Shown here one piece after another: positions 1,244 through 34,455 of a stretch of DNA of 64,000 nucleotides (positions within the stretch are counted from its first letter, which is position 1; each line of letters begins with the position of its first letter). The DNA is from an uncultured delta proteobacterium (GTDB taxonomy: Bacteria > Desulfobacterota > Binatia > Binatales > Binataceae): contig CAVQEQ010000003.1 in NCBI GenBank assembly GCA_963711565.1, positions 1,472,001 through 1,536,000 of the forward strand, given 5' to 3'. Below the pieces are notes generated by a model. It had not been told where the DNA came from, searched no databases, and saw only the letters and a list, made by a program, of their open reading frames with translations. Made by a program: the position numbers and the translations under genes.

Positions 1244-2461
1244 ATGGACGGCAGCTACCGCGTCGCGTGCCTGGTCAGTCATCCGATCCAGTACCAGGCG
1301 CCGCTGTTCCGTTATCTTGCGGCGCATCCGGGAATCGATCTGACCGTTTTTTTCCTGAGCGACCTGTCGATCTACGCGTATCACGATTCGGGTTTTGGCG
1401 TGGACGTAAAGTGGGACGTGCCGCTGCTCGACGGCTACCGCCATGATTTTTTGCCGCGCATCGGCTCCGGGAGCGGGCTATCTTTCTGGCGGCCGTGGAC
1501 GTTCGGGCTGCGCACGCGACTGCGGCGCGGCCGCTTCGACGCGTTGTGGGTCCACGGCTATGCGCATCGCGGATGCCTCGCGGGTATCGCGGCGGCGAAG
1601 TCGCTTGGAATGCAAGTAATGCTGCGCGGGGAATCCAACCTGCCGAGCGAGACCGATGACGCGCTGAAGCTGGGCGTCAAGCGAGTCGCGATGCCCGCGC
1701 TGCTGCGGACGATTGACGGCGTGCTCGCGATCGGGCGGCTCAATCGCGAGTACTATCTTCATTACGGGGTCGAAGCCGGCCGGATTTTCCCGATGCCCTA
1801 CGCAGTGGACAACGAATTTTTTCGCTGTGCAGCGGAGCGCGCGCGGCCGCAGCGCGAAGAGTTGCGTGCGGAGCTTGGATTGAAGCCGGGACGCGCGGTG
1901 ATCCTGTTCGCCTCGAAGATGCAGCCGCACAAGCGCGCCGCCGACCTGCTCGAAGCCTACGCGCGACTGTCACCCAACGGCGTTGCCGAACCCGCGCCGT
2001 ACCTGGTCTTCGCCGGCGACGGCGAGGAGCGGGTTAATCTCGAACGCCGCGCGCGCGAACTGAAATGGGACTCGGTCCGCTTCATTGGCTTTCGCAACCA
2101 GTCCGAACTTCCGGCCCTGTACGATTTATGCGACGTGTTCGTGCTGCCCTCCGAGCACGAGCCGTGGGGACTCGTCGTCAACGAAGCGATGAACGCGGGC
2201 AAGCCGTTGGTCGTGAGCGATCGCGTAGGCGCGGGGCCGGATTTGATCGAGGACGGCGTCAGCGGATTCATATATCCGGTACGTGACATCGCATCGCTCG
2301 CGGATCGGCTGCGGCGGCTAATCGACAGCCCCGAGCATCGCATCGCGATGGGCGAGCGCTCGCTCGAAAAGGTGGCGCGCCTTGATTTCGCAGCGGATAG
2401 TCAGGGCCTGCTCAGCGCGCTCGATTCCATTGTCGGCAAGAAAGCGCGCGCCGCGGCGTGA
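1244..2461 (+). CDS. Glycosyltransferase family 4
   Basis: SHPIQYQAP N-terminus, LPSEHEPWGLVVNEAMNAG (EX7E); GTG at 1238 is an alternative start. Confidence 0.9.
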   Translation: MDGSYRVACLVSHPIQYQAPLFRYLAAHPGIDLTVFFLSDLSIYAYHDSGFGVDVKWDVPLLDGYRHDFLPRIGSGSGLSFWRPWTFGLRTRLRRGRFDALWVHGYAHRGCLAGIAAAKSLGMQVMLRGESNLPSETDDALKLGVKRVAMPALLRTIDGVLAIGRLNREYYLHYGVEAGRIFPMPYAVDNEFFRCAAERARPQREELRAELGLKPGRAVILFASKMQPHKRAADLLEAYARLSPNGVAEPAPYLVFAGDGEERVNLERRARELKWDSVRFIGFRNQSELPALYDLCDVFVLPSEHEPWGLVVNEAMNAGKPLVVSDRVGAGPDLIEDGVSGFIYPVRDIASLADRLRRLIDSPEHRIAMGERSLEKVARLDFAADSQGLLSALDSIVGKKARAAA

Positions 2462-2481
2462 AGTGATTGACGCCGCACTCA

Positions 2482-3828
2482 ATGAAGACTTTGCACCTTC
2501 CGTTCTGCTTCTATCCTGATCCGGTTGGTGGCACCGAGATTTACGTCGAAGCTCTCGCCGTCTGCCTGCGCAAGTTGGACGTTGAGGCGGAAGTCGCGGT
2601 ACCCGCCACTGACCAGCGTTCATATCGATACAACGACCTGACGGTGCATCGATTCGAGACCGGGACTCCCAGCTTGGCCGACTTATACGGCCCTGGCGAT
2701 CCGGTTGCGGCACGGTCGTTTGCAAAGGTCCTCGAGTCCTGCGCACCCGACGTGGTGCACCTGCATTCCTGGACCACCGGGGTATCACTCAGGCTGCTGC
2801 GCACCGTCAAAGCAGCGGGCATCCCGGTCGTGTTCACCTATCACACGCCCACCGTCACTTGCGCCCGCGGAACTCTGTTGCGATGGGGCAGCGAGCAATG
2901 CGATGGCGACCTCAAGTCGGCGCCATGTGCCGCTTGCATGCTTAACGGCAAAGGACTTAGTCGCGCACTCAGCACCGCGTTGGCCAGTATTCCTGTCGCC
3001 GTAGGCAAGCGCGTCGGCGAGCTCAGGCTGAATGGAAAACTAATGACCGCGGTCCGCGCGTCGGAGCTGATACAACTACACCACGACGCCGTGAAGGGTC
3101 TGTTCGCGGAAGCTGACGCAATCGTCGCGGTCAGCAACTGGGTTTACGATTTGATCGTGCGAAACGGTACGGACAAGTCCAAGCTGACGATCTCGCGTCA
3201 TGCGCTGCGCGACTCGGCTGAGTTGAATCATCCGGCCCAACCTCGAAGGGCTGATGAGGACATCCGCATCGCCTTCGTGGGGAGGCTGGCGCGCGAAAAA
3301 GGCATCGACATTCTCCTCGAGGCGATGCGGCGAATCACCAGCCCCCGCCTCAAGCTTGATATATTCGGCCTGGCAGTTGACAGCGAAGCGGAATCCCTCA
3401 AGCAGAGCGTGGTGAACGCCGGCGATCGACGCATCCGGCTGCTTCCGCCATTTCCCAACGCGAATGCGATTTCCGAACTTGGCGCGTACGATTGTCTCGC
3501 CGTCCCTTCGCAGTGGTTAGAGACGGGTCCGCTGGTAGTGCTGGAGGCATTCGCCGCGGGTATTCCGATCGTCGGCTCGAATTTAGGTGGAATCGCGGAG
3601 CTGGTGGAGGACGAGAAAAACGGATTGCTGGTCGAGCCTGCTTCGATCGAGGCCTGGGTCACGGCGTTCAATCGATTGCTCACGGAACCAGGGCTGTTGT
3701 CCCGGCTTCGACTTGGTATCCCGAAGGTTCGAACGATGGATCAAGTCGCGGTCGAGATGTTAGCCCTGTACCGCCGGCTTGCGCCGTCGGTTCTGCCGTT
3801 CACCGCGCTGGAAGAACGCCCGCAATGA
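2482..3828 (+). CDS. Glycosyltransferase family 4
   Basis: GGTEIY, PDVVHLH, VPSQWLETGPLVVLEAFAAG; ends EERPQ. Confidence 0.9.
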   Translation: MKTLHLPFCFYPDPVGGTEIYVEALAVCLRKLDVEAEVAVPATDQRSYRYNDLTVHRFETGTPSLADLYGPGDPVAARSFAKVLESCAPDVVHLHSWTTGVSLRLLRTVKAAGIPVVFTYHTPTVTCARGTLLRWGSEQCDGDLKSAPCAACMLNGKGLSRALSTALASIPVAVGKRVGELRLNGKLMTAVRASELIQLHHDAVKGLFAEADAIVAVSNWVYDLIVRNGTDKSKLTISRHALRDSAELNHPAQPRRADEDIRIAFVGRLAREKGIDILLEAMRRITSPRLKLDIFGLAVDSEAESLKQSVVNAGDRRIRLLPPFPNANAISELGAYDCLAVPSQWLETGPLVVLEAFAAGIPIVGSNLGGIAELVEDEKNGLLVEPASIEAWVTAFNRLLTEPGLLSRLRLGIPKVRTMDQVAVEMLALYRRLAPSVLPFTALEERPQ

Positions 3829-4856
3829 AAGTGTCAGTCGTGATCCCGACCTATAACGACGAAGGCACGATTGCGGCCACGGTCGGGAGCGCGCTGGCGC
3901 AGCGGTTCGACGGCGAGTTCGAGGTGATCGTCGTCAACGACGGATCGACCGACGGCACGCGCGCGGAACTCGCAAAGTTCGGCGATCGGATCCGGGTGAT
4001 CGATCAAGCGAACCGGGGCGTGTCGGCGGCACGCAACGCCGGCATCCAGGCGGCGGCGGGAGAATACATCGCGCTGCTGGACGGCGACGACACCTGGATG
4101 GAGGACAAGCTCGCGAAGACGGTGCCGGTCCTCGATAAAAATCCGGCGTGCGTGGCAGTGGCTTCGAACGTGATCGGCGTGGACGGCGCCGGCAGGGAAG
4201 TTTCGTATCCCGTCACTCCCGAATTCCGTCATTCGCCGACGCTCGACGAGATGCTCGACAAGTTGTGGGCGTACCTGCCCAGCGCGGTCGTCATACGACG
4301 GGAAACGCTGCAGGCGATCGGCGGCTTCTCGGAAGAATTCAAACCGGAGCATTACGCCTGCGAAGATACGTTCATCATGCTGCTGGTGCGCGAGCGCGGC
4401 GAGATCACCTACGTGCCTGATGTGCTGGTCCGGTACCGTTGCAGAGAATTCCACGCGCGCCTCGCCAATCGGCTGCGCAGCCGGCGTTTCGAGATCGATT
4501 CAGAGGATGCATTTCGCGAGTTCGAGCGCCGATACGAGGCCAATATTATTCTCGCGCGGCTGACGCGCGAGCATTTCGGCGCTCGTGGCCGCAAAATTGC
4601 CGCATTATCGATCGATAGCGTCGCCCGCGAGCTGGTCGGAGTCGGCTTGATGGCGATGCACCAGGGCGATCGCACGCTGGCGCAGCGAAGCTATCGCGCA
4701 TCGATTCGCTACAGCCCCCTGATGTTGAAAACCTGGTTGCGGCTCGGGTGGGCGATGCTTCCCGCCACAGCTGCGCGAACGCTCTCACCGATGTTTCCAC
4801 CGGGGTTGCGGCGCAGCCTCTCGGGTCCTCCAGTTATGGAGGAACGCCCGCAATGA
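3825..4856 (+). CDS. Glycosyltransferase family 2, tandem copy 1
   Basis: VSVVIPTYN, VVNDGSTD, LDGDD; ATG overlaps upstream TGA (ATGA). Confidence 0.92.
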   Translation: MKVSVVIPTYNDEGTIAATVGSALAQRFDGEFEVIVVNDGSTDGTRAELAKFGDRIRVIDQANRGVSAARNAGIQAAAGEYIALLDGDDTWMEDKLAKTVPVLDKNPACVAVASNVIGVDGAGREVSYPVTPEFRHSPTLDEMLDKLWAYLPSAVVIRRETLQAIGGFSEEFKPEHYACEDTFIMLLVRERGEITYVPDVLVRYRCREFHARLANRLRSRRFEIDSEDAFREFERRYEANIILARLTREHFGARGRKIAALSIDSVARELVGVGLMAMHQGDRTLAQRSYRASIRYSPLMLKTWLRLGWAMLPATAARTLSPMFPPGLRRSLSGPPVMEERPQ

Positions 4857-5896
4857 AAGTGTCGGCCGTGATCCCGGTCTACAACGCCCAGGGCACGATT
4901 GCGGCCGCAGTAGAGAGCGCGCTCGCGCAGCGGTTTGATGGCGGCTTAGAGGTTATCGTCGTCAACGACGGATCGACAGACGGCACGCCCGCGGTGCTGG
5001 AAAAATTCGGCGCTCGCATTGCCGTGATCGATCAGCCGCGGCAGGGCGTGTCCGCCGCGCGCAATGCCGGTATCAAGGCGGCGGCGGGCGAATATGTAGC
5101 GCTGCTGGACGCCGATGACGAGTGGACGGAGGACAAGCTCGCAAAGACGGCGCAGGTGCTCGAGCAGAACCCCTCGTGCGTCGCTGTATTCTCGGATGCG
5201 AGCGTCGTAAAAGTCCAGGGCAGGATCCTTCCGGCGAAGTATATCGGGAGTGGGTACGATCATTCGCCGACGCTCGACGAGCTGCTCAAGCCGGCGTCGT
5301 GGCCGATCCTGCCCAGCGCGACCGTGGCTCGGCGAAAGACGTTGCTTGAGATTGGAGGGTTTTCCGAGGAATTTGGAGCGGGCGACTATTACGGCGAAGA
5401 CACATTCGCGTTCTTGCTGGTGCGCGAGCGTGGCGAGATAGTCTTTGTGCCGGAGAACCTGGTGCGATACCGAATGCCGGAGTCGGAGGGAAAGCTTTCC
5501 AAGCGCATCGGCCCGCCCAATTCCAATGGCGGCCGGAATTTGCGCGGCCTCCGGGAAGATCCTCATCGGTACTTCAGAGGAAACCAGGTCTTTGCGCGGC
5601 TCATGCGCGAACGATTCGGCAATCGCGGACGCGGGCTGGCAAACGCCGCCGCCGGCGCGGCTGCGCATGGATTGGTGACGCTCGGCTTGATGGCGATGCA
5701 CGAGGACGATCGCGCGTACGCGCGGCGATGTTACCGCGCCTCGATTAGCTACAGTCCGCTGACGTTGAAAACCTGGTTCCGGCTCGGGTGGGCGATGCTT
5801 CCCGGCAAAGCTGCGCGAGTGCTGTCGCCGATTTTTCCGCCGGGCTTACGGAGGAGCTTGTCAGGTCCGCCGTTTTTGGAGGAACGCGCGCAGTGA
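4853..5896 (+). CDS. Glycosyltransferase family 2, tandem copy 2 (most divergent)
   Basis: VIPVYN, NDGSTD, LDADD; ATGA overlap, GGAGG SD. Confidence 0.92.
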   Translation: MKVSAVIPVYNAQGTIAAAVESALAQRFDGGLEVIVVNDGSTDGTPAVLEKFGARIAVIDQPRQGVSAARNAGIKAAAGEYVALLDADDEWTEDKLAKTAQVLEQNPSCVAVFSDASVVKVQGRILPAKYIGSGYDHSPTLDELLKPASWPILPSATVARRKTLLEIGGFSEEFGAGDYYGEDTFAFLLVRERGEIVFVPENLVRYRMPESEGKLSKRIGPPNSNGGRNLRGLREDPHRYFRGNQVFARLMRERFGNRGRGLANAAAGAAAHGLVTLGLMAMHEDDRAYARRCYRASISYSPLTLKTWFRLGWAMLPGKAARVLSPIFPPGLRRSLSGPPFLEERAQ

Positions 5897-6921
5897 AAGT
5901 GTCGGTCGTGATTCCGACCTATAACGACGAAGGCACGATTGCGGCCACGGTCGAGAGCGCGCTGGCACAGCGGTTCGAAGGCGAGTTCGAGGTGATCGTC
6001 GTCAACGACGGATCGACTGATGGCACGCGCGCGGAACTCGCGAAATTCGGCGATCGAATCCGGGTAATCGATCAGGAGAATGGTGGCGTATCGGTAGCGC
6101 GCAACGCCGGCATCAGAGCGGCAGCCGGAGAATATATCGCGCTGCTGGACGGCGACGATGCCTGGATGGAGGACAAGCTTAAGAAGACGGTACCGGTACT
6201 CGATAAAAATCCGGCGTGCGTGGCCGTCTTTACGAATGTGATCGGCGTGGACGGCGCGGGCCGGGAGGTTTGGCGCTATGTTTCGCCCGAATTCCAGCAT
6301 TCGCCGACCCTCGATGAGATGCTTGAGTGGCCGTGGCCGATTTTGCCCAGCGCGTTCGTCATACGGCGGGATACGCTGCAGGCGATCGGCGGCTTCTCAG
6401 AAGAATTCAAACCGCAGCATTGGGGCGGAGAAGACAATTTCCTGACGCTGCTGGTGCGGGAGCGCGGCGAAATCGCGTATGTGCCAGAGACGCTGGTCCA
6501 GTACCGCTGCCGGGACTTCCACGCACACTTCGCCAATCGGCTCCGCGGCCGGCGTTTCGAGGATTCAGCCGAGGCATTCCGCGAGTTCGAGCGCCGATTC
6601 GACGGCAGAACTATCCTTGCGCGATTGACGCTCGAGCACTTCGGCGCTCGCGGCCGCAAAATCGCCACATGGGCGATCGATACGGTCGCACGCGATCTGA
6701 TCGGAGTTGGGCTGATGGCGATGCACCAACACGATCGCGCGTTTGCACGGCGGTGCTACCTCGCATCGATTCGCCATCGTCCGCTGACGTTGAAAACCTG
6801 GTTCCGCCTCGGGTGGGCGATGCTTCCTGCCACGGCTGCGCGAACGCTCTCACCGATGTTTCCGCCGGGGTTGCGGCGCAGCCTGTCGGGTCCCCCAGTT
6901 TTGGAGGAACGCCCGCAGTGA
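5893..6921 (+). CDS. Glycosyltransferase family 2, tandem copy 3
   Basis: GTG start in GTGA overlap; same GT-A motifs. Confidence 0.92.
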   Translation: MKVSVVIPTYNDEGTIAATVESALAQRFEGEFEVIVVNDGSTDGTRAELAKFGDRIRVIDQENGGVSVARNAGIRAAAGEYIALLDGDDAWMEDKLKKTVPVLDKNPACVAVFTNVIGVDGAGREVWRYVSPEFQHSPTLDEMLEWPWPILPSAFVIRRDTLQAIGGFSEEFKPQHWGGEDNFLTLLVRERGEIAYVPETLVQYRCRDFHAHFANRLRGRRFEDSAEAFREFERRFDGRTILARLTLEHFGARGRKIATWAIDTVARDLIGVGLMAMHQHDRAFARRCYLASIRHRPLTLKTWFRLGWAMLPATAARTLSPMFPPGLRRSLSGPPVLEERPQ

Positions 6922-7949
6922 AGGTGTCGGTCGTGATTCCGACCTATAACGACGAAGGCACGATTGTGGCCACGGTCGAGAGCGCGCTGGCACAGCGGTT
7001 CGAAGGCGAATTCGAGGTGATCGTCGTCAACGACGGATCGACTGATGGTACGCGCGCGGAACTCGCAAAATTCGGCGATCGGATCCGGGTGCTCGATCAG
7101 GAGAATCGTGGCGTATCGGCGGCACGCAACGCCGGCATCCAGGCGGCGACGGGAGAATATGTCGCGCTGTTGGACGCCGACGATACGTGGACCGGGGACA
7201 AGCTCGCGAAGACGGTTCCGGTGCTCGATAGAAATCCGGCGTGTGTGGCCGTCTTTTCCAACGTAGTCGGCGTGGACGGCGCGGGCAGGGAAGTCTGGTA
7301 CTTCGTCGCGCCGGAATTCCGGCGTTCGCCCACACTCGACGAGATGCTCAATTTGTCCTGGCCGTATCTGCCCAGCGCGGTCGTCATACGGCGGGATACG
7401 CTGCTGGCGATCGGCGGCTTCTCCGAGGAATTCAAAGCTGAACATTGGGGCTGCGAAGACGTTTTCTTTATGATGATGGTGCGGGAACGCGGCGAAATCT
7501 TGTACGTGCCCGAGACGCTGGTCCGGTATCGCTGCAGAGACTTCCACGCACACTTCGCCAACCGGCTCCGCAACCGGCGTTTCGAGATGGACTCGGTGGA
7601 GGCATTCCGCGAGTTCGAGCGCCGATTCGAGGCAAACTTTATCTTTGCGCGTTTAATGCTCGAACACTTCGGCGCGCGCGGCCGCAAACATGCCACATGG
7701 GCGATCGATACCGTCGCACGCGATCTGATCGGGGTTGGGCTGATGGCGATGCATCAGGATGATCGCGCGTTTGCACGGCGGTGCTACCTCGCAGCAATTC
7801 GCCATCGTCCGCTGACGTTGAAGACCTACTGCCGACTCGCGTGGGCGATGCTTCCCGGCAAAGCAGCGCGAACGCTCTCACCGATGTTTCCACCGGGGTT
7901 GCGGCGCAGCCTGTCGGGTCCCCCAGTTTTGGAGGAACGCCCGCAATGA
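6918..7949 (+). CDS. Glycosyltransferase family 2, tandem copy 4
   Basis: GTG start in GTGA overlap; same GT-A motifs. Confidence 0.92.
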   Translation: MKVSVVIPTYNDEGTIVATVESALAQRFEGEFEVIVVNDGSTDGTRAELAKFGDRIRVLDQENRGVSAARNAGIQAATGEYVALLDADDTWTGDKLAKTVPVLDRNPACVAVFSNVVGVDGAGREVWYFVAPEFRRSPTLDEMLNLSWPYLPSAVVIRRDTLLAIGGFSEEFKAEHWGCEDVFFMMMVRERGEILYVPETLVRYRCRDFHAHFANRLRNRRFEMDSVEAFREFERRFEANFIFARLMLEHFGARGRKHATWAIDTVARDLIGVGLMAMHQDDRAFARRCYLAAIRHRPLTLKTYCRLAWAMLPGKAARTLSPMFPPGLRRSLSGPPVLEERPQ

Positions 7950-8767
7950 ACATCCTGGAGAGAGCCAGCGTTGCGATCCGGCACGCACCGGCGTTAGAAC
8001 GCGCGGACTGGTTATGGGACCGGATCCGGCCCGCGTACGACCGCATGCTGGCGACGGTCGCGCGAAGGCGCGGCCTCGAGCGCGTGATCAACGGCACCGA
8101 CCGGTTCCGGCTGAGTGCGCAGTCGCGCGGCTTCATCGCGGAAGAGTATGAGCCGGCGGTCTGGCGGCGGGTGATGCGCGAAGTCAGGGCGGGCGACCAC
8201 GTCGTGGAAGTCGGCGCGAACATGGGACTCTACGCACTGGCGTTCGCGGGACGAGTCAGAGCTGCGGGCCACGTGACGGCGTTCGAGCCCGATCCGGAGA
8301 GCGCATCAGCTCTGGAAGCCAACGTTGGCGTCAATGGCTGGCGGGACAGAGTCACCGTAATCAGAGCCGCGGTTGGTCAGAGCAACGGCCCAGTTCGATT
8401 TGCGGCGGCGCGAGGATTGGAGTCGCGAATCGAGACGCGTCCTGACGGCGGCAGCGGCGTAATCTCGGTGCCGATGGTTACGCTCGACGACGCGTTTGCG
8501 GGGCGGCGAATCGATGTCATCAAGATTGACGTTGAGGGCTTCGAGCAGAATGTAATCCAGGGCGCGCGAACCGTCCTGACGGAGGAGCGCGGGCGTCCTC
8601 GGGCGATCCTGATGGAAGTGCATCCTTTCGCGTGGGCGGAGACCGGCACGACCAGCGGGAGCTTGCTCGGTCTGCTCGACCAGGCGGGCTTCAGAGTCGA
8701 AGATATGCAAGGCGCCCCGGTTTCGAGCATCAGCGAGTACGGGCACGTTATCGCGCTGCGCAAATGA
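7946..8767 (+). CDS. FkbM-family methyltransferase
   Basis: VEVGANMGLY, AFEPDP, IDVIKIDVEGFE. Confidence 0.9.
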   Translation: MNILERASVAIRHAPALERADWLWDRIRPAYDRMLATVARRRGLERVINGTDRFRLSAQSRGFIAEEYEPAVWRRVMREVRAGDHVVEVGANMGLYALAFAGRVRAAGHVTAFEPDPESASALEANVGVNGWRDRVTVIRAAVGQSNGPVRFAAARGLESRIETRPDGGSGVISVPMVTLDDAFAGRRIDVIKIDVEGFEQNVIQGARTVLTEERGRPRAILMEVHPFAWAETGTTSGSLLGLLDQAGFRVEDMQGAPVSSISEYGHVIALRK

Positions 8768-12040: not shown

Positions 12041-13121
12041 AACCACCGCCTACGCCCCGTCGAGCGCGCACTTCCTGGAGGCTCTGGAAGCCGGCGCGGC
12101 GCGCGGCGCGCACGAGTTTCGATTTCTCGACGAGGCGGATTTCATCAAGCGCTCGCGGTCGATAGCGGAACGGATAGCCGATCGCGTCGCGGGGCGGCCG
12201 CTGAGCGGCTATCAGCAATTGAATCGCGCGCTGGTCGATCAGGCGGCGGTCTTCTCGCCCGATATCATTCTGATTGGCAAGGGCCGGTGGTTTACGCCGG
12301 CGGCGCTCGAAGCCGCCAGGAAAGTCAGCGGCGCGACACTGGCGAACTGGGCCACCGACGATCCGTTCAATCGCGCCGACAACTCGCGCGATCTGGTCAA
12401 ATCGATTCCGCTGTACGATCTGTATGTCTGCACCAAGAAGGACATCATGAGCGACGTGCGCCGCGCTGGATGCGCGAACGTCGCGTACGTGAGATTCGGC
12501 TACAAGCCGGAGGTACATTTTCCGGAGGCCCCGGCGACCGAGGAAGAGCGCGAGCAATTTGCTTGCGACGTGATGTTCATCGGCGGATGCGACGCTCATC
12601 GCAGTGCGTACTTCGAGGCGCTGATTCGCGCGATGCCCGAGGTGAAGCTTCGCTTGTACGGGATGTACTGGGAACGCGTGCGCGCGCTGCGGCCGTATGC
12701 GCGGGGATTCGCCGTGGGGCGCGAGTATCGGCTCGCGGTCGGCGGCGCAAAGATATCAGTGAACCTCGTAAGGCGCGCAAATCGAGACGATCACGTGATG
12801 CGCACGTTTGAAATTCCAGCCTGTGGCGGCTTCATGCTGACCGAGAGATCCTCGACGCACGACGAATTATTCCTCGAAGACCATGAAGCGGCATTTTTCG
12901 GATCGCCGGAAGAATTCGTCGCCAAGGTCCGCGGCTATCTCGCGCGTGACGAAGACCGAACCAGGATTGCCGCCGGGGGGCATCGCAAAATCACGCAGGG
13001 GCGGCATACTTACGCCGATCGGCTCGCGGAAATTATCGAAGCGGCGCGAACAGTCAGAGGATTGCAGAAGCGAATGACCGTTGGCGCGCCGCAAACCAGT
13101 GAGATCGAATCGAATGGCTGA
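12021..13121 (+). CDS. CgeB-like glycosyltransferase (Glyco_trans_1_2)
   Basis: WATDDP, MRTFEIPACGGFMLT, HTYADR. Confidence 0.85.
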   Translation: MRIFYAETTAYAPSSAHFLEALEAGAARGAHEFRFLDEADFIKRSRSIAERIADRVAGRPLSGYQQLNRALVDQAAVFSPDIILIGKGRWFTPAALEAARKVSGATLANWATDDPFNRADNSRDLVKSIPLYDLYVCTKKDIMSDVRRAGCANVAYVRFGYKPEVHFPEAPATEEEREQFACDVMFIGGCDAHRSAYFEALIRAMPEVKLRLYGMYWERVRALRPYARGFAVGREYRLAVGGAKISVNLVRRANRDDHVMRTFEIPACGGFMLTERSSTHDELFLEDHEAAFFGSPEEFVAKVRGYLARDEDRTRIAAGGHRKITQGRHTYADRLAEIIEAARTVRGLQKRMTVGAPQTSEIESNG

Positions 13122-14640
13122 AGCGCTCGAAGCGGGGCCGCCGCAGCCTGGCGATGAATGGTACGTGCTGGTCAGCCTGCCGAGGCCGGGTTCTGCGACT
13201 CTCGGCAACGCGCTGATGCTGGCGGCCTCGGTCGTAGTAGCGCTGGTCGCGCTGAATCTCTGGGCGCCCGCTCCGCCGACGATCCTCGAGCGGATCTTTG
13301 CCTCGGCGATAGTGGCGTCAATCGCGCTTCCGGTCTGGCTCTGGATGTCGGGCGCGGATCGAACGATTCCATTCATGCCGTTCCTGACACTGGTCTTTGC
13401 CTACTACTTCGCGCTGCCGGTCTTCCTGTTGAGACAATATGCCGTCGGCATGTTCAAGCCGCCCGTTCCCGCACCCTACATCGAACTCGCGCTTGAATAC
13501 TCACTGTTGGGACTCTACTGCCTATTCGCCGGATACTACGGACCGGCGAAATGGCTATTCGCGCCGATACTACCTCGATTCAACCTGCAATGGCGCGATA
13601 CCCGGGTAGTAAAGCTGGTAGCGCTGATACTTGGATTCGGTGGATTGCTCGTGTCGTCGTCGCGTGTGCTCGAGTCCCTGCCGGAAAGCCTTGCGCAAAT
13701 CGGCGTATTCGCAAGTGACCTCTCGCTGGTTGGAATCTGCGCGTTGGTCGCGCTTCACCTGGCGGGCAAACTGGATTGGATTACCGCAGCGTGCGTATGG
13801 GGCTTTCTGATTCCGGTCAGAATCGCAGTCGGCCTGGGCGAAGGCGCGGCCGCCAGCGGCCTGATAGTAGGCATCGCCGTCGTCATGATGTTCGCATCCG
13901 TGCGCCGCTCGATTCCATGGAAGATGATGTTGCTGGGAACCGTGGCGCTGTTCATCCTGCGTCCGGCCGAAGTGCCGTATCGCATGGCGATCTGGGGCGG
14001 GCGATTGACGGATGCGGGCCCGATCGAAAAGGCGCGCGCCTTCGGCGATATCGTTTACCGAATCACCATCGGCGGCGCCGTCGATCCACGAGCGCTGGTC
14101 GAAATGGCGAGCATGCGGCTGGCGCAGTTCACAGTGTTTGGCGAAGTGATCGGGGACACCCCCGGTATCGTGCCGTATTGGGATGGCGCGTCGTATTATC
14201 CGATCCTGTTCAAGCCCATCCCGCGCTTCATCATGCCTGACAAGCCCGAAGAAGTGAGTGGCGAATGGTTCGGCCATCGCTATGGACTGATCACCGAGCA
14301 AAACATCACGACCTCGATCAACCTTCCGCAGATAGTCGAGTTGTACGGCAACTTCGGGCTCATCGGAGTGCTCGTCGGGATGTTCCTGTTCGGGTTGATC
14401 TTCCGGCTGCTGATCGAGATGTACATCCACCCCGGCATGGGACTTGGCGCGCTGGTCGGCGGGGTTTACGTTTCGTCGCGAGTGCTGGATGTCGGCTCCG
14501 CCGCGTCGCTGACCCTTGGCGCGCTTCCATGGAGCATCCTGTTGATGGCGCTGATTCACGTCGTCGTCCAACTCGGTGAGATCGACGCGATGTGGTTCGA
14601 CTCGCGCGCCCAGGCGGGCGCAAAGGCGCGCACGACTTGA
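13114..14640 (+). CDS. Polytopic membrane protein, probable O-antigen/EPS polymerase (Wzy-like)
   Basis: ~10 hydrophobic segments, IPRFIMPDKP loop, ELYGNFGLIG motif, cluster context. Confidence 0.65.
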   Translation: MAEALEAGPPQPGDEWYVLVSLPRPGSATLGNALMLAASVVVALVALNLWAPAPPTILERIFASAIVASIALPVWLWMSGADRTIPFMPFLTLVFAYYFALPVFLLRQYAVGMFKPPVPAPYIELALEYSLLGLYCLFAGYYGPAKWLFAPILPRFNLQWRDTRVVKLVALILGFGGLLVSSSRVLESLPESLAQIGVFASDLSLVGICALVALHLAGKLDWITAACVWGFLIPVRIAVGLGEGAAASGLIVGIAVVMMFASVRRSIPWKMMLLGTVALFILRPAEVPYRMAIWGGRLTDAGPIEKARAFGDIVYRITIGGAVDPRALVEMASMRLAQFTVFGEVIGDTPGIVPYWDGASYYPILFKPIPRFIMPDKPEEVSGEWFGHRYGLITEQNITTSINLPQIVELYGNFGLIGVLVGMFLFGLIFRLLIEMYIHPGMGLGALVGGVYVSSRVLDVGSAASLTLGALPWSILLMALIHVVVQLGEIDAMWFDSRAQAGAKARTT

Positions 14641-27553: not shown

Positions 27554-27564
27554 GTGTATCGGAA

Positions 27565-27600
27565 CCTAACCCTAACCCCTTCCCCTGGTGGAAGGGGAAG
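27565..27600. repeat. REP-like palindrome
   Basis: CCTAACCCTAA-CCCCTTCC-CCTGGT-GGAAGGGG. Confidence 0.45.
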
Positions 27601-27622
27601 CGGATTTGAGAGTCGGTGCGTC

Positions 27623-28708
27623 CTACTCGAACATCAGGACTGTGCGCGCGACTTCGCCGGCCTTCATCGCGCGGAATGCCTCGTTGACATCCTCCAGTTT
27701 GCCGCGCCGCGTGATCATATCGTCGAGGTCGAGCCGCCCTTGCTGATAGAGCTCGATGATGCGCGGCATGTCGATGCGGAAGCGGTTCGACCCCATGAAG
27801 CATCCCTGGATGCGCTTCTCGTACAGCAGCGAGAAGCCCTCGACGTTGACCTTCTGCCCGATCGGGACCATCCCGACGATCGTCGCGATGCCGCCCGAGG
27901 CGAGCGCTTGATAAGCCTGCTCGGCCGCGACCTTGAGTCCGATCGCTTCGAACGAGTACTCGACGCCACCGCCGGTGAGCTCGCGAATCTGAGCTACCGC
28001 GTCGCCCTTCGACGCGTTAACGGCGTGAGTCGCGCCGAGCTTCTTGGCGAGCTCGAGCTTGGAGGCGAACTTGTTGACCGCGATGATCATGCGCGCGCCC
28101 GCGATTCGCGCGCCCTGGATGATCGCGAGGCCGACGCCGCCGGCTCCGAACACGGCGACCGTCGATCCCGGCGCAACCTTCGCGGTGTTGAGCGCGGCGC
28201 CGACGCCCGTCATCACGCCGCATCCGATCAGCGCCGCGCGATCGAGCGGCACGTCGTTGCCAATCTTCACCAGCGCGTTTTCATGCAGCAGCATTTTTTC
28301 CGCGTAGCCCGACAGGTCGGCGAACTGATTGACCATCTTGCCCTTCTGCGAGAGGCGCGGCTTGTCGCCGGCGCCGCGCTGCGTGGCGGCCTTGTTCGAG
28401 CAGAGATTGGGATGGCCCGACATGCAGTCCTCGCAGTAGCCGCAGAAGACCGAGAGGCACGCGATCACGTGATCGCCGGGCTTGAGGTACGAGACCTGCG
28501 ATCCGACTTTCTCGACGACGCCGGCCGCCTCGTGGCCGAGCACCGCGGGCGTCGGCCACATGTAGAGGCCGTCCACGAAATGGAGATCGCTGTGACAGAC
28601 GCCGCTCGCGACCGTGCGCACGACGACTTCGCGCTCTTTGGGTTCGTCGATATCGACCTGCTCGATAGTGAGTGGCTGACCGGGACCGTGGAAGACAGCA
28701 GCTTTCAT
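27623..28708 (-). CDS. Zn-dependent alcohol dehydrogenase (copy B)
   Basis: GVCHSD, GHE, CxxxCxxCxxC..C, GAGGVG. Confidence 0.93.
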   Translation of the reverse strand: MKAAVFHGPGQPLTIEQVDIDEPKEREVVVRTVASGVCHSDLHFVDGLYMWPTPAVLGHEAAGVVEKVGSQVSYLKPGDHVIACLSVFCGYCEDCMSGHPNLCSNKAATQRGAGDKPRLSQKGKMVNQFADLSGYAEKMLLHENALVKIGNDVPLDRAALIGCGVMTGVGAALNTAKVAPGSTVAVFGAGGVGLAIIQGARIAGARMIIAVNKFASKLELAKKLGATHAVNASKGDAVAQIRELTGGGVEYSFEAIGLKVAAEQAYQALASGGIATIVGMVPIGQKVNVEGFSLLYEKRIQGCFMGSNRFRIDMPRIIELYQQGRLDLDDMITRRGKLEDVNEAFRAMKAGEVARTVLMFE

Positions 28709-28753
28709 TTGGATTGCTCCTTGAATTCTATTTTCGTTTCGCGCGGGCGCGAG

Positions 28754-29842
28754 TTAGTTGAACATCAACACCGTGCGCGCGACCTCGCCCGCCTTCATCG
28801 CGCGGAATGCGTCGTTGACGTCTTCGAGTTTGCGGCGCTGGCTGATCATGTCGTCGAGATTGAGGCGCCCCTGCAAGTAGAAGTCGATGTACTTGGGCAT
28901 GTCGATGCGGAAGCGGTTCGAGCCCATGTTCGAGCCTTGCAGTTTGCGCTCGGTGAGAAACATGTAGCCGTCGAGTTCGACCTTCTGGCCGACGGGGATC
29001 ATGCCGATCACGGTTGCGGTGCCGCCGGGCTTGATCGCGAGGAAGGCCTGCTCGGCGACCTTCTTGAGTCCGATCGCTTCGAACGAGTAGTCGACGCCCG
29101 CGCCGTCGGTCAGCTTTCTGATCTCATCGACGGCGTCGCTGCTCGACGCGTCAACGGTGTCGGTCGCGCCCAGCCGCTTGGCCATCGCGAGCTTGCCCTC
29201 AAACATATCGACCGCGATTATCTTGCGCGCACCCGCAATTCGCGCGCCCTGGATTGCCGCGAGTCCGACGCCGCCCGCGCCGAACACCGCGACCGTCGAT
29301 CCGGGCTCGATCTTCGCCGTGTTGAGCACCGCGCCGACGCCGGTGGTGACGCCGCATCCGATGAGCGCGGCGCGATCGAGCGGCAGGTCTTCGCGAATCT
29401 TCACCACCGCGTTCTCATGCAGCAGCATCTTCTCGCAGTACGACGAGATGTCGAGGAACTGGTTGACGGGCTGGCCCTTCTGCGAGATGCGCGGCTTGTC
29501 GCCGGGCTTGCGCTGCGTGGCGGCCTTGTTCGAGCATCGATTCGGATGCCCCGACATGCACTGCTCGCAATTGCCGCAGAACACCGACAGGCAGCAGATC
29601 ACGTGGTCGCCGGGCTTCACGTAGGTCACCTGTTTGCCGACTTCCTCGATGATGCCGGCGGCCTCGTGGCCGAGAACCGCGGGGGCAGCGTATGGGTAGA
29701 GACCTTCGACGAAATGGAGATCGCTGTGGCACACGCCACTCGCAACGGTTTTGATCAGGACTTCGCGGTCCTGCGGTTTGTCGAGTTCGACGTCCTCGAT
29801 ACTGAGGGGCAACTTGGGCCCGTGGAAGACTGCGGCTTTCAT
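28754..29842 (-). CDS. Zn-dependent alcohol dehydrogenase (copy A)
   Basis: Same motifs; close tandem paralogue with the same TCAAGGAGCA RBS. Confidence 0.93.
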   Translation of the reverse strand: MKAAVFHGPKLPLSIEDVELDKPQDREVLIKTVASGVCHSDLHFVEGLYPYAAPAVLGHEAAGIIEEVGKQVTYVKPGDHVICCLSVFCGNCEQCMSGHPNRCSNKAATQRKPGDKPRISQKGQPVNQFLDISSYCEKMLLHENAVVKIREDLPLDRAALIGCGVTTGVGAVLNTAKIEPGSTVAVFGAGGVGLAAIQGARIAGARKIIAVDMFEGKLAMAKRLGATDTVDASSSDAVDEIRKLTDGAGVDYSFEAIGLKKVAEQAFLAIKPGGTATVIGMIPVGQKVELDGYMFLTERKLQGSNMGSNRFRIDMPKYIDFYLQGRLNLDDMISQRRKLEDVNDAFRAMKAGEVARTVLMFN

Positions 29843-29998
29843 TCTGAGTGCTCCTTGAGTGTGGCGATAAAGTTGGCCGCGCGCGCGATTGATGACATCT
29901 GCCGCGCGAGCGCCGTGGCGATCACTTTACTTACCACACTGACGGCGCATTTCCAGCGCTTTCACGCACTGAGTCGGGCGCGCTAGCGATTGTGGCGA

Positions 29999-30427
29999 TC
30001 AGCGCTTGACGAACGAGTATTTCTTTGGCGCGTGCTCGCGAAGATAATTGCGCAGCGAGTCCATGCCCCGGTCGCGAACCGTTGCTTGCCAACCTCGCGC
30101 GGACTTCTCTTCGATCCACCATTCGTTGGCGGCCAGCCTGATATAGACGATCATCGTGTAGCTGATCTCGGCGCTGCCGCGACCGCCAAAATGGGTCAAC
30201 GGCAGGTCGAACTCATCGAACAGTTCCTGCCAGTAAGTCCAGGTCAGGCCAAAAGGCTTTGACGTCGTCGCCGGACCGTCAGGAACATCCTGAGATTTTA
30301 TGTCGAAGCGCCGCATCAACGCTTTCTGCAAGCGGTACGCCGCCTCGGCCTCTGCCGCGAGGGCTCCGTTATCTGTGCTGACCTTGCGCAGCAGTGCGAT
30401 CTTTCGCAGTGCGTCTTCGACGGTCAT
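29999..30427 (-). CDS. Hypothetical protein with DUF2786-like N-terminal helix pair
   Basis: LRKIALLRK...AEAEAA...LMRRFDI resembles DUF2786. Confidence 0.5.
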   Translation of the reverse strand: MTVEDALRKIALLRKVSTDNGALAAEAEAAYRLQKALMRRFDIKSQDVPDGPATTSKPFGLTWTYWQELFDEFDLPLTHFGGRGSAEISYTMIVYIRLAANEWWIEEKSARGWQATVRDRGMDSLRNYLREHAPKKYSFVKR

Positions 30428-30542
30428 CGACTTCCCCAACAGGTTGGCAGTCCCCCCAAATCGGCCGTAAAGTTACCCATATCGCGCGTAAGACGCAAGT
30501 TCCTTTTGATAACTGGTCTAAATTCCAGGAAATGGGTGATCG

Positions 30543-32096
30543 TTATGGGAAAAATGAGGGCTTGGCCGTGCCCTTGAACGGTACGCCTTCGAGGCGCGCG
30601 GCAGGTGAGTCTGCGCGCGCGTAAAGCCGGGCAACGTCGTCGCTGTAGATAAGCCGCCAATCGGGTTGGGAATCCATCAGCTTCGACTGCGGCCAATCCC
30701 GCTTCATCAAAACGAAATCAGTCGGATAGGCGACGAGCGTATGCACGCCGCCCGGCTTGCCTCGATCCAGCGCCATGAAGTCCGCGATTACTTTCGGTGG
30801 ATAGCCGAGATCGTAGCGGCTGTCGATGAAGACCCGGGTGCCTGGTTGGGCGTGCCAAAGTACGTACTCACCCCAAGCGTAGTTGGGCAGCACGTTTCCC
30901 ACCAACCCGTGGCTGTTCATGAAATCGACGGCTTCGGCAGGATTGCCTGACGCGTCAATTCCAGGCTTCAGGATTCCGCTGTAGCGCGCGAACCCGAGCG
31001 CAACGCAGGCTATCACAAGTTCCATGATCCATCGGCCTGCACGCGGTACGGCTCGCGCGGCTGGGGCGAAGGAGGCCTCGCGTGGGCGTAGCAGCAAACC
31101 CAGGTGGTAGGCGAACACCGGAACGATCGCGATCGTTGCGATCGCGATATTGCGCTGGGCCTTGAACGCGCTCGCGAGCAGTACGGCGGCGACGGCCACT
31201 ATCGGCGCGTCCGCGATCCTCGGTCTTAAGATCACAGATACAACCGCCGCGGCAAAAAAGAGCATCACCATGACGAAATACTTTTGCTCGAGGCTGCCGG
31301 GAGGTGCGGTCGTCAGAGAAGCAATCAGCGGCTTCCAATCGACAATGTCGCCGGGCGTCATCGGGTTGCGGATCGAATAGATCAGCGTGTACCAGGTCTC
31401 GCGCGCAGGCGGGATCAGAAACGTGCACAACGTCGATGCGGCAGCGGCCGCCGTGATCGCAATGACGACGAGGCCGCGACGCGGCCCGCGGCCGGTCAAA
31501 ATGTCGGACACGACGGCTATCGCTCCGTACGCGCCCATCGCGACCAGGCCGATGAAAAATCCGCCGTGAAGATTGCTCCAGATCGCCATGATCGGAATTG
31601 CAAGCCACAGCGGCGCCGAACCGCGCCAGTTGTGACGAGCAAGCATCGTGACAATTGCCGACAACAAGATGAAATCGAATAGCTGCGGCCGGAACTGCAT
31701 CGAAGGAACAATCACCAGGGCCGCGATCAGAGTGATTACCGCCTGCACGCCCGCCGGCGCGCCGGTTTCGGACTCGGCGAGCACGATAAAGGAGATGGTG
31801 CCGGCCGTGCAGAGGAACTTGAGCAGCTTCAGCCCGAAGGGTCCGAAGCGGTCGAAAATCGCGCTCATCACGACTTCGCTCAACCATTCATGGTGCAGCC
31901 AGCGGAAGTCCGGCGCGGAATACGAGTAGATGTTGTTGGGCGGCAGCGAACCATGCGCGAGCAGCGCGCGGCCCCAGAGAATGTGGCCCCACAAATCGGG
32001 ATCGCTGAGCTGGCGGATGTCCGCGATCACGATCGCGAACAGGACGAGGGCCGGCGAGTAGCGCCAGAGCGAGACGCGAGCGGGACTGTCGGCCAC
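30543..32096 (-). CDS. Polytopic membrane protein, GT-C-fold glycosyltransferase-like
   Basis: DPDLWGH..G, HEWLSE, RPQLF, WSNLHGGF, FIDSRYD. Confidence 0.65.
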   Translation of the reverse strand: MADSPARVSLWRYSPALVLFAIVIADIRQLSDPDLWGHILWGRALLAHGSLPPNNIYSYSAPDFRWLHHEWLSEVVMSAIFDRFGPFGLKLLKFLCTAGTISFIVLAESETGAPAGVQAVITLIAALVIVPSMQFRPQLFDFILLSAIVTMLARHNWRGSAPLWLAIPIMAIWSNLHGGFFIGLVAMGAYGAIAVVSDILTGRGPRRGLVVIAITAAAAASTLCTFLIPPARETWYTLIYSIRNPMTPGDIVDWKPLIASLTTAPPGSLEQKYFVMVMLFFAAAVVSVILRPRIADAPIVAVAAVLLASAFKAQRNIAIATIAIVPVFAYHLGLLLRPREASFAPAARAVPRAGRWIMELVIACVALGFARYSGILKPGIDASGNPAEAVDFMNSHGLVGNVLPNYAWGEYVLWHAQPGTRVFIDSRYDLGYPPKVIADFMALDRGKPGGVHTLVAYPTDFVLMKRDWPQSKLMDSQPDWRLIYSDDVARLYARADSPAARLEGVPFKGTAKPSFFP

Positions 32097-32108
32097 CGTA
32101 GTATCGCG

Positions 32109-32963
32109 CTATGCGCGCGCGCCGAAGCAGATGGTCTCGTTGCTTAGCCGCACGACGCCGCCGGCCGTCGCGTATTCCCGCGCCGACGCTACGACTGCGT
32201 CGCGCACTTGGCGAGCAGCCTCGGCTGGCATTTTGGAGAGCATCGCGCGAGTGCCGCCGATCTGGCCGCGGAAGTCCGCGAATGCGTCCGCCGACGGAAA
32301 TTCGAACGTGACGATCAGTCGTTCGACGGCTACGTCGTGAAAGCCTGCGCCGCCCAGAGCGCGCTCGAGGATCGAAGTATCTGCAAGCCGGATCGGGTCC
32401 GGCGCGTTCGGCGGCGGCGCGATTCCCGTAATCCGCCGAATCGCGTCGCGTGCGAGGCCACACATCGGCACCTTGTCCGCGACCGACCAGACTGCTGTGG
32501 CAAAGCGGCCGCCCGGCTTGAGTGCACGATGCATTGCGCGAACGACGCCGTCGAGGTCAGGCATGAACATGAGACCCCAGCGGCACAGCACGGCGTCGAA
32601 GGAATGGGCGTCGAGGCTTAGAGACTCGGCGTCGGACTCGACGAGTTCGACGTTCTTCAGGCCCGCCGCATCGACTCGCTCGCGCGCGATCGCGAGCATT
32701 CCCGGCGACATATCGACGGCGACGACTCGTCCCGATTGTCCAGCCGCGCGCGCCGCGGTCAACGCGGGCTCGCCGCTACCGGTTGCGATGTCGAGCACAC
32801 GATTGCCGGGGCGCACGTTCGCCAGCTCGACGAGCCGATCGTTTACCGTCTGCGCAGCGCGCTCGAAGGTCGGCCACCACCGCTTCCACCCCTCGGCGCT
32901 GTCATCCCACGCGGCCTTTTGCTGACCTTTTATTTTCAAATCGTCCGCATTCTGATCGCTCAT
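32109..32963 (-). CDS. Class I SAM-dependent methyltransferase (UbiE-like)
   Basis: VLDIATGSGEP, FDAVLCRWGLMF, LKPGGRF. Confidence 0.88.
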   Translation of the reverse strand: MSDQNADDLKIKGQQKAAWDDSAEGWKRWWPTFERAAQTVNDRLVELANVRPGNRVLDIATGSGEPALTAARAAGQSGRVVAVDMSPGMLAIARERVDAAGLKNVELVESDAESLSLDAHSFDAVLCRWGLMFMPDLDGVVRAMHRALKPGGRFATAVWSVADKVPMCGLARDAIRRITGIAPPPNAPDPIRLADTSILERALGGAGFHDVAVERLIVTFEFPSADAFADFRGQIGGTRAMLSKMPAEAARQVRDAVVASAREYATAGGVVRLSNETICFGARA

Positions 32964-32970
32964 TGTCGTT

Positions 32971-34455
32971 TCACCTTCGCAGCACCGTTACGCCGCGCAG
33001 GCGCGCGACCGTTTGCGGATAATCCTTTCTATATGACTGGACGCCGGCGGGCGCGAGGCTCTGGTCGCCAAGAATTAAAACGGCAGCCGGCGGCCCCGAC
33101 GGATCATATCGAACCGCGCGATTCTGTTGATCGGCAGGCAGATAATATCTGAGCACTTCGATCGCGTACGACGGGACTGCCGTCATGAGTTCGCCCGGCT
33201 TGAGCGCGGACTCGGCCGCCGCAATTGCTTCGCGATATTGCGCGTCATGCGGCTTGCGATCGTACGAAACGATATGGCCGACCGAGAATGCGACCGCGAG
33301 CGCGAGCCCCCCGACGCGGACGAGATCGCCGGGCAACTCGAATATTCCCAACGCGGCGAGGATGAAGAACGGGACGAAGCACGACAGCGCGTAACGCTCG
33401 ACGAATACTGGCGCGATCGCGTACGACGCGACGACCATCATGAGCGGTGGCGCCCACATCCACAGCAGCGCGAAATTAGTTGCGTCATGTGCGCCGCGGC
33501 GCCATCCGCGGACCACGCCCCAAATCGCGAGCGCCGCGAGGATCGGGAACGCGAAGCTGCCGGTGGCCTTGTTGAACAGCGCGAAGGGTTCGTACAGCGC
33601 GGGAGGCTTGCGCCATCCGCCGACGCTGCCGGCAGAAGCGCTGCGCAGAGACGAAAAAAGCTTCCGCATGAGAATCAACCCTGCTACGGCGAGCGCAATC
33701 GCGATCGTCCATGCGCGCCGCGCGTTCAGATCCTCAGGACGCCATCCTGCGCGCGCGATTATGAAGACGAGCCACAGTCCTTCGGTCGCCGGTATCAGCA
33801 CTGCGGTGAAGTTCGAGGCGATTGCGATTGCCGTCAGAACCACGACGGCCGCGTAGTTCGCGAGGCCGCCGACGCGGATCGCGCGGAGGAACATCGCCAC
33901 TTGCGCGAGAATCGCCGCGAGCATCAGCGGATACATCCGCGCCTCGCGCGAGTACTTGATCGTCACGAGGTTCACGGCGAAGAGCAGCGCGGCGAGCCCC
34001 GCAATCATCCCGATGTCGTCATTGCTCAGCGCTGAGTCCTTTTCCGAACCCGTCACGAACAATTCGATTACAACTATATAGACCAGAGCTATCGACAGGA
34101 CGCCCAAGGCTGCCGACAGCGCGCGCATCGCGGCAATGCTCGAGCCGAACAGCGCGATCCAGCCGTGCAGCAGTAGATCATGCACCGGCAGCTCGCCCGG
34201 ATTTAGCGACGGCTGGCGTGCGATCACTTCGGCGGCGGTCGGCGCGGACGCCGCCGCCCATGACGCGGCTTCGTCGGGCGACATTTCGAGCGCGCCGAGA
34301 TTGTTGAAGCGGATTGCGCTCCCCGCGGCGAGGGCGACTATCAGCAGCAGGAGACTCAGCGCACGGGCCGAAACGATCGGGCGGGAGGTCGTTGGAGCGG
34401 GCGGATGACCGCGTGGCTGATCGCGCTCGTCCGCTTTGGGGGCGGCCGTCGTCAG
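32971..34455 (-). CDS. GT39/PMT-like membrane glycosyltransferase
   Basis: IRFNNLG...SPDE, YSREARMY motifs; frame is open upstream of ATG 34284 to a CTG at 34455. Confidence 0.7.
   Translation of the reverse strand: MTTAAPKADERDQPRGHPPAPTTSRPIVSARALSLLLLIVALAAGSAIRFNNLGALEMSPDEAASWAAASAPTAAEVIARQPSLNPGELPVHDLLLHGWIALFGSSIAAMRALSAALGVLSIALVYIVVIELFVTGSEKDSALSNDDIGMIAGLAALLFAVNLVTIKYSREARMYPLMLAAILAQVAMFLRAIRVGGLANYAAVVVLTAIAIASNFTAVLIPATEGLWLVFIIARAGWRPEDLNARRAWTIAIALAVAGLILMRKLFSSLRSASAGSVGGWRKPPALYEPFALFNKATGSFAFPILAALAIWGVVRGWRRGAHDATNFALLWMWAPPLMMVVASYAIAPVFVERYALSCFVPFFILAALGIFELPGDLVRVGGLALAVAFSVGHIVSYDRKPHDAQYREAIAAAESALKPGELMTAVPSYAIEVLRYYLPADQQNRAVRYDPSGPPAAVLILGDQSLAPAGVQSYRKDYPQTVARLRGVTVLRR

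Follow-up and report, generated by a model that had tools for sequence, protein, structure and literature searches.

The subject of this study is a tandem array of four genes of glycosyltransferase family 2 (GT2), lying between a gene of glycosyltransferase family 4 (GT4b) and an FkbM-family methyltransferase gene. It is located in a 64,000-nucleotide (nt) stretch of DNA, hereafter the window, from an uncultured deltaproteobacterium of the Binataceae (assembly GCA_963711565.1, contig CAVQEQ010000003.1, positions 1,472,001 to 1,536,000). An initial annotation, based on the letters of the window only, had noticed five near-identical 21-nt repeats at the gene junctions and had proposed that recombination between them adds or removes whole GT2 units, as in an accordion. 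Compared across the genus “Ca. Binatus,” this prediction appears to hold for the most part over evolutionary time, and we consider it likely that whole units of the coupled operon are gained, lost, and exchanged through slow RecA-type recombination between conserved gene heads and tails. The role given to the 21-mer itself is not supported, however, since the repeats that flank inserted genes in relatives are 100 to 178 bp long, paralogue heads and tails share perfect runs of up to 53 bp, and the only joint seen within the species lies in the middle of a gene.

Structure of the array

The features, all on the forward strand and in window coordinates, are as follows.

2482..3828, +, GT4 glycosyltransferase (GT4b), 448 aa, Pfam PF00534, unrelated to the GT2 genes
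3793..3828, +, GT4b tail of ~36 nt homologous to the “long” GT2 tail (PPFxxLxD/ERPQ), containing the Shine-Dalgarno (SD) sequence and start of GT2a
3808..3828, +, 21-mer copy 1 at the GT4b end, SD GGAAGA, ATGA overlap
3825..4856, +, GT2a, 343 aa, PF00535
4836..4856, +, 21-mer copy 2 at the GT2a end
4853..5896, +, GT2b, 347 aa, PF00535
5876..5896, +, 21-mer copy 3 at the GT2b end
5893..6921, +, GT2c, 342 aa, GTG start, PF00535
6571..6602, +, 32-nt stretch identical to 7599-7630, site of a one-unit skip in one contig of metagenome run X10
6901..6921, +, 21-mer copy 4 at the GT2c end
6918..7949, +, GT2d, 343 aa, GTG start, PF00535
7929..7949, +, 21-mer copy 5 at the GT2d end, with the FkbM SD and start
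7946..8767, +, FkbM-family methyltransferase, 273 aa, PF05050

The positions and letters of all five 21-mers were confirmed, each encoding EER(P/A)Q-stop with GGAGGA (GGAAGA at 3808) 9 nt before an ATG or GTG that overlaps the stop. Pfam agreed with the gene identities given initially (GT4, four GT2, FkbM); all four GT2 genes scored 117 to 127 bits against PF00535 (gathering cut-off 23.3) over residues 4 to ~115-163, and the eight solved GT2 relatives match residues ~1-133 only. The claim that direct repeats surround every GT2 gene is right for the sequences, but four of the five copies are just the ends of 1.03-kb paralogous units, because the similarity of the GT2 genes extends from end to end; the GT4b copy is the sole isolated repeat. 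In the genome of the window (G000; 4.84 Mb, 95% complete, both strands searched) the 21-mer has 5 matches and no more when up to 3 mismatches are allowed, 6 with 4 mismatches, and 15 with 5. Thus, it is no genome-wide signal, and the GT4b copy is not due to chance; no other gene junction carried the motif at up to 3 mismatches, and its candidacy as a general signal of the genome was rejected. No promoter was found (1.5 expected) and terminators showed no excess (4 found, 5.7 expected).

Copy number and an empty junction among relatives

We compared 47 genomes of “Ca. Binatus,” 25 of which were matched by the tail/head query, and 23 loci carried both flanks on a single contig. The number of full-length GT2 genes at these loci (two frameshift-split genes counted as genes) was zero in three genomes, two in eight, three in seven, four in four, and five in one, so that copy number does vary among relatives, from 0 to 5, as the accordion idea required. 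A single distant GT2 in another context (G026, L042) was left out of this count, as were G011, G023, and short contigs of G024 and G030, in which one flank is absent.

The empty GT4-FkbM junction that had been predicted exists in genome G065, where FkbM starts 14 nt after GT4b and the junction consists of the GT4b tail, the usual spacer, and the FkbM head. This spacer is the one that follows the last GT2 gene in most relatives, shifting the FkbM start 14 nt onward; it is missing in the window and in G062. No match to a GT2 tail was found elsewhere in G065 (96% complete). In each of the five remaining genomes with GT4b, this gene is followed by an orthologous GT2a, and the G065 GT4b nests among theirs (support of 89/92 in the protein tree and 92/90 in the unrooted DNA tree), which makes a deletion the more parsimonious reading. 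G065 would then have lost the whole array by a crossover within the short (≤~36-nt) tail match, a candidate 4-kb deletion across an imperfect match; so short a match matters at the GT4 junction only. Other loci are rearranged in different ways: G014 lost the array when a head fused to a tail at a short stretch common to both, in G062 most of FkbM is lost, and an internal junction of G022 combines a GT2 tail, ~30 nt of the FkbM head, and a GT2 start. Stop/start coupling is retained in the rearranged loci, in line with the initial proposal.

A probably borrowed tail of GT4b

GT4b was found in 6 of the 47 genomes. Among its best 120 homologues, the top 16 (76 to 100% identity; close homologues carry the NCBI name “Ca. 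Binatus”) end in an EERPQ-like tail in 15 cases by inspection and in 11 by the strict pattern, while the tail pattern appears in none of the 104 ranked 17 to 120, one of which is a truncated close homologue. When the 6 GT4b genes were compared with 15 long GT2 tails, mean identity was 0.84 to 0.98 at 28 to 33 nt from the stop, 0.64 at 34 to 36 nt, and mostly 0.07 to 0.68 beyond. In genomes without GT4b the array opens with a divergent GT2 directly behind another GT4 gene, GT4a, and in G065 GT4b is preceded by the first codons of the upstream region of the divergent GT2, as in G014. This pattern suggests that the GT4b tail was taken from a GT2 gene. GT4b probably replaced older GT2 genes once, in an ancestor, and retained the last 36 nt of one of them, which carried the ribosome-binding site of the next gene; the 21-mer would be the SD-bearing core of this remnant. 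GT4b carriers fall in two clades of a topA species tree and the GT4b DNA tree divides likewise, a pattern that vertical inheritance and some losses can account for without any transfer; this agreement leaves the direction of change at G065 unfixed.

In G002 (L031:6754-9198), an extra base near the GT4b end joins GT4b in frame with GT2a in an 815-aa frame. It is likely a sequencing error, since P0002 ends normally.

Unrelated genes between tail copies

Genes unrelated to GT2 also stand between copies of the junction. G005 contains a second FkbM gene and a PMT_2-family gene, each between repeats of ~100 to 115 bp composed of the terminal ~75 nt of GT2, the spacer, and the initial 20 to 30 nt of FkbM, the same head that reappears as left flank of inserted genes in relatives. 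The repeats around the PMT_2 gene are 94% identical over 100 nt in G002, 95% over 115 nt in G005, and 89% over 101 nt in G061; those around the second FkbM gene in the metagenome locus L063 are 96.5% identical over 115 nt, and a methyltransferase gene in G061 is flanked by 178-bp repeats with 97.8% identity. The two cassettes before FkbM occur in varying combinations: G002 and G061 have only PMT_2, L063 has only the second FkbM, G005 has both, and the others have neither (the cassette scan gave nine loci on five contigs, two of them identical to G005). The PMT_2 frame crosses the tail in a different frame and stops on the FkbM start, which keeps translational coupling. A radical-SAM frame is fused to a GT2 C terminus in G002, G005, and one G030 contig. 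Flank lengths differ from case to case (36, ~75, 178, and ~330 nt). In contigs of GTDB genomes, the FkbM-head pattern was detected in 14 stretches on nine contigs titled as Binatus, Binataceae, or deltaproteobacterial metagenome-assembled genomes, with no new architecture among them.

Some further observations concern the same loci. The SD of the second FkbM gene of G005 (L032:13850-13870) shares 11 nt with the 21-mer, by chance or as a tail remnant. A second insertion hotspot lies at the GT4a junctions, between GT9/GT4a and the array (L034, L048, L052, L053, L051, and L049). The inserts there include a sulfatase-like gene plus a lipoprotein-like one, as judged from their translations, in G036, G067, and G062. 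G068 has a Kelch-like Thr-rich protein at this place, G065 and G008 have membrane proteins, and G002, G005, G065, and G014 have a methyltransferase. A short palindrome resembling repetitive extragenic palindromes (TGAAACCC...GGGTTTCA type) recurs intergenically at the locus in many Binatus genomes (L034, after GT4a, and L035, L037, L038, L039, L031, L032, and L052).

Ends and middles of the GT2 genes

The four GT2 genes of the window are 68 to 87% identical throughout, and their ends are the most alike (78 to 97% in 100-nt windows). A total of 62 GT2 genes were extracted from the loci. In a nearest-neighbor comparison of 56 of them, the closest relative came from the same genome for 8.5 heads and 8.2 tails, versus 2.0 middles. 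Segment trees of heads, middles, and tails were built from 26 GT2 genes (divergent x/y types and some genomes excluded). For the middle, monophyly of the four G000 paralogues is rejected in the approximately unbiased (AU) test (p-AU 2e-7); for the head (0.14) and the tail (0.37) it is not. In the middle tree, GT2a falls together with the GT2 gene standing first behind GT4b in G062, G002, G005, and G061 (support 99/95), and GT2b belongs to a separate subfamily with genes of G068, G022, G066, and G003 (100/99). Neither grouping holds at the ends: the GT2a orthologue clade is rejected on the head (p-AU 0.0003) and tail (0.004), and the GT2b subfamily clade on the head (0.024) and tail (4.8e-5). 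GT2b has the body of another GT2 subfamily with a tail of the G000/G062 type, and G002 and G005 have a chimeric GT2 in which a head resembling that of paralogues is joined to a middle of ~55% divergence. From these comparisons, the gene ends appear to recombine and to group by lineage, while the middles keep orthology.

G000 has a second cluster (G000:C4:618000-629000), whose four GT2 genes are more distant and lie in both orientations, with a 66-nt inverted repeat (94%), and a tandem duplication of ~0.88-kb period (70%). Comparable GT2 clusters exist in most genomes of the genus.

A proposed mechanism and the points against it

The ribosome-binding site of each gene lies in the last codons of the previous one, and an insertion or replacement that keeps translation would have to keep or duplicate this tail. 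Selection would thus leave tail copies, which could serve as recombination sites, and foreign genes would come to be flanked by junction copies because of selection for continued translation. Recombination would occur within the chromosome or with DNA from related strains, and as a likely consequence strains and species would slowly come to differ in their surface glycans. We infer the RecA step, how each foreign gene was first captured, and what happens to the glycan; the genome contains recA, a ComEC-family gene, and dprA.

Several points weigh against this scheme. For RecA, a homology no longer than 36 nt and containing mismatches is short. The GT2a-linked GT4b genes as one clade without G065 are not rejected (p-AU 0.061). 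The clades tested on heads and tails had been picked from the middle tree, and runs tests for mosaicism among GT2a, GT2c, and GT2d alone were not significant (p of 0.15 and 0.10). At four-fold sites the heads of G000 paralogues a, c, and d differ at 4 to 6 of 32 to 33 positions, about as much as orthologues of other species, so that homogenization is old or rare. No crossover was caught in reads, all aligned runs being contigs. Finally, the PMT_2 and second FkbM cassettes end at the identical tail base, which would not be expected from random illegitimate joining.

Variation within the species

Part of the stretch was found in 20 of the 24 metagenome runs listed, and eight runs were aligned as contigs. 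These contigs mostly show four copies. In run X10, however, one contig (388 nt, depth 4.6) runs from GT2c into GT2d and leaves out precisely 1028 nt, its joint passing through the 32-nt identical stretch, mid-gene and away from the 21-mer; it may represent a three-copy strain or an assembly chimera. This contig would be expected if the array expanded and contracted quickly within populations, in a manner similar to phase variation, as the csa1 cluster of Staphylococcus aureus does. So would the clustering of GT2 differences between conspecific contigs. Relative to the window, X4 has 11 to 18 differences per 0.6 to 1.1 kb in three of four GT2 pieces and 5 in 1.4 kb of GT4b; among the differences listed, 15 of 30 equal the letter of a paralogue, a count that is no test of conversion. 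Yet the X10 joint passes through an identity just above the typical assembly word length, at low depth, which makes a chimera possible; no unit-skipping joint was found in the contigs of the other seven runs, nor a GT4b-FkbM joint in any of the eight. Furthermore, the paralogues are 13 to 32% divergent, with perfect runs of no more than 53 nt. Such fast variation is unlikely.

At window positions 2461-2478, runs X4 and X6 carry additional letters that the window lacks.

An alternative: duplication and loss under selection

A plainer explanation is tandem duplication and loss of GT2 genes with purifying selection, the 21-mer being a conserved C terminus plus a ribosome-binding site and the ends having no repeated role. 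Whole-gene paralogy does account for four of the five copies, conservation would be expected in the N-terminal catalytic core of GT2, and the missing mosaic signal among GT2a, GT2c, and GT2d fits as well. Selection alone, however, does not give ends grouped by lineage on middles grouped by orthology, and neither the orphan tails beside unrelated genes, some of them in another frame, nor the empty junction of G065 are explained. We regard this explanation as improbable, as the AU tests and the orphan tails largely refute it.

Search for a dedicated recombinase

Alternatively, a trans-acting site- or structure-specific recombinase could use the GT2 tail as attachment site for an integron-like capture of glycan-modifying genes, with G065 as an empty site. 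Two unrelated cassettes share their right-hand boundary, nearly identical to one in G008, and flanking duplications were detected at no other coding junction in self-comparisons of the fetched loci, apart from one 24-nt repeat in G008. G000 has nine tyrosine recombinase matches and one serine recombinase match, but the nearest tyrosine recombinase is ~240 kb distant; no recombinase of any kind was found among the 64 open reading frames (ORFs) scanned in the window and 20 kb upstream, and the initial annotation was right that no recombinase is adjacent. No match to the integron integrase profile TIGR02249 exceeded the cut-off in the 95% complete genome. The core motifs of integron attC sites are GTTRRRY and RYYYAAC, and neither occurs within 60 nt of any of the five junctions. 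Eight folds of the repeat gave z values from +0.4 to −2.1 with differing structures, that is, no conserved hairpin, and the junction pattern had no match in viral contigs. Flank lengths that vary also speak against a defined site. The array as an integron was ruled out for lack of IntI, attC cores, and a shared hairpin, and for its variable boundaries. A dedicated system is quite improbable, and we keep it as a slim chance because two unrelated cassettes end at the same tail base. If it were true, this would be an integron-like capsule diversifier with a protein-coding attachment site at an SD/stop-start junction.

An assembly artefact can practically be dismissed. Nothing was found in its favor: the copies are only 68 to 87% identical, X4 covers each GT2 middle with a contig of its own at similar depth (164 to 176, versus 153 for GT4 and 187 for FkbM), the studies are independent, and 22 other genomes with both flanks have related loci, 19 of them holding two to five GT2 genes.

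Relation to known systems

The proposed slow RecA-type recombination of conserved ends has parallels. In the immunity arrays of S. aureus esaG and Streptococcus tipC, tandem paralogues recombine via conserved end blocks (PMC9484751), and the S. aureus csa1/lpl “gene accordions” are clusters of surface-trait paralogues whose copy number is altered by homologous recombination (PMC7360770, PMC2568036). With the esaG/tipC/csa1 type, the Binatus array shares adjacent, nonidentical paralogues in the same orientation, discordant segment phylogenies, and a copy number that varies among relatives. It differs from esaG/tipC in that the genes are glycosyltransferases with overlapping stop and start and no intergenic DNA, that unrelated GT4, FkbM, PMT_2, methyltransferase, and radical-SAM genes share the tail and move as units, and that our comparison spans species rather than clones. 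The csa1 copy number shifts within cultures and infections, whereas the Binatus variation was seen between relatives, and lpl has a conserved centre and variable ends, whereas our array has a conserved junction and a variable middle.

Similarities with integron cassettes are the addition and removal of single genes at a repeated site in varying combinations; in contrast to them, the Binatus repeat is coding sequence, IntI, attC cores, and a conserved hairpin are missing, and the boundaries vary.

Among surface glycosyltransferases, Neisseria lgt genes are reportedly lost by recombination between paralogues. The adjacent homologous genes jhp0562 and beta-1,3-galT of Helicobacter pylori are reported to recombine into chimeric alleles (PMC5381349), and at jhp0562/galT and at lgt (PMC2192810) gene number differs by strain and alters surface glycans. 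These systems belong to pathogens, however, and comprise pairs of genes or a locus of five, and the accessible portions of those papers describe no capture of unrelated genes via an SD/stop-start tail. The part of PMC4450262 that was available contains no passage on recombination. No publication on the Binatus locus was found in the literature searched, most subscription papers being outside its reach.

The mechanism would be that of a known paralogue accordion, with the twist that genes from outside the family can enter it once they bear the junction. The surprise is moderate, a known mechanism appearing here in an uncultured soil genus. Nevertheless, the locus offers a natural case of a polysaccharide operon that gains and loses genes without breaking translation, in which the ribosome-binding tail of one gene family would be a shared hinge and unrelated enzymes that acquire the tail become removable units. 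A testable rule follows: insertions into stop/start-coupled operons should bring a duplicated junction.

Genomic context

The array forms part of a long cluster of glycan genes. Just upstream of the window are a NusG-family gene, a Poly_export/SLBB exporter (PF02563, PF10531), and Wzi (PF14052), so that the exporter and Wzi stand in the same cluster, as in a Wza/Wzi-type capsule locus. Given these neighbors, the product of the cluster is likely a capsule and the array likely belongs to a capsule operon. Within the window, the ORFs at 27554-29983, 30546-32096, and 32974-34284 (region 27554-34284) have no Pfam match at E 1e-8. The 508-aa membrane protein encoded at 13114-14640, present genus-wide and also without a Pfam match, is from its position a putative Wzy-like polymerase. 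In the stretch just upstream of the window (L066:11973-18952), the NusG-family gene heads the cluster, and behind it come the Poly_export/SLBB protein of 1046 aa, a gene for a lytic transglycosylase, and Wzi; this order suggests a capsule operon that is likely controlled by antitermination.

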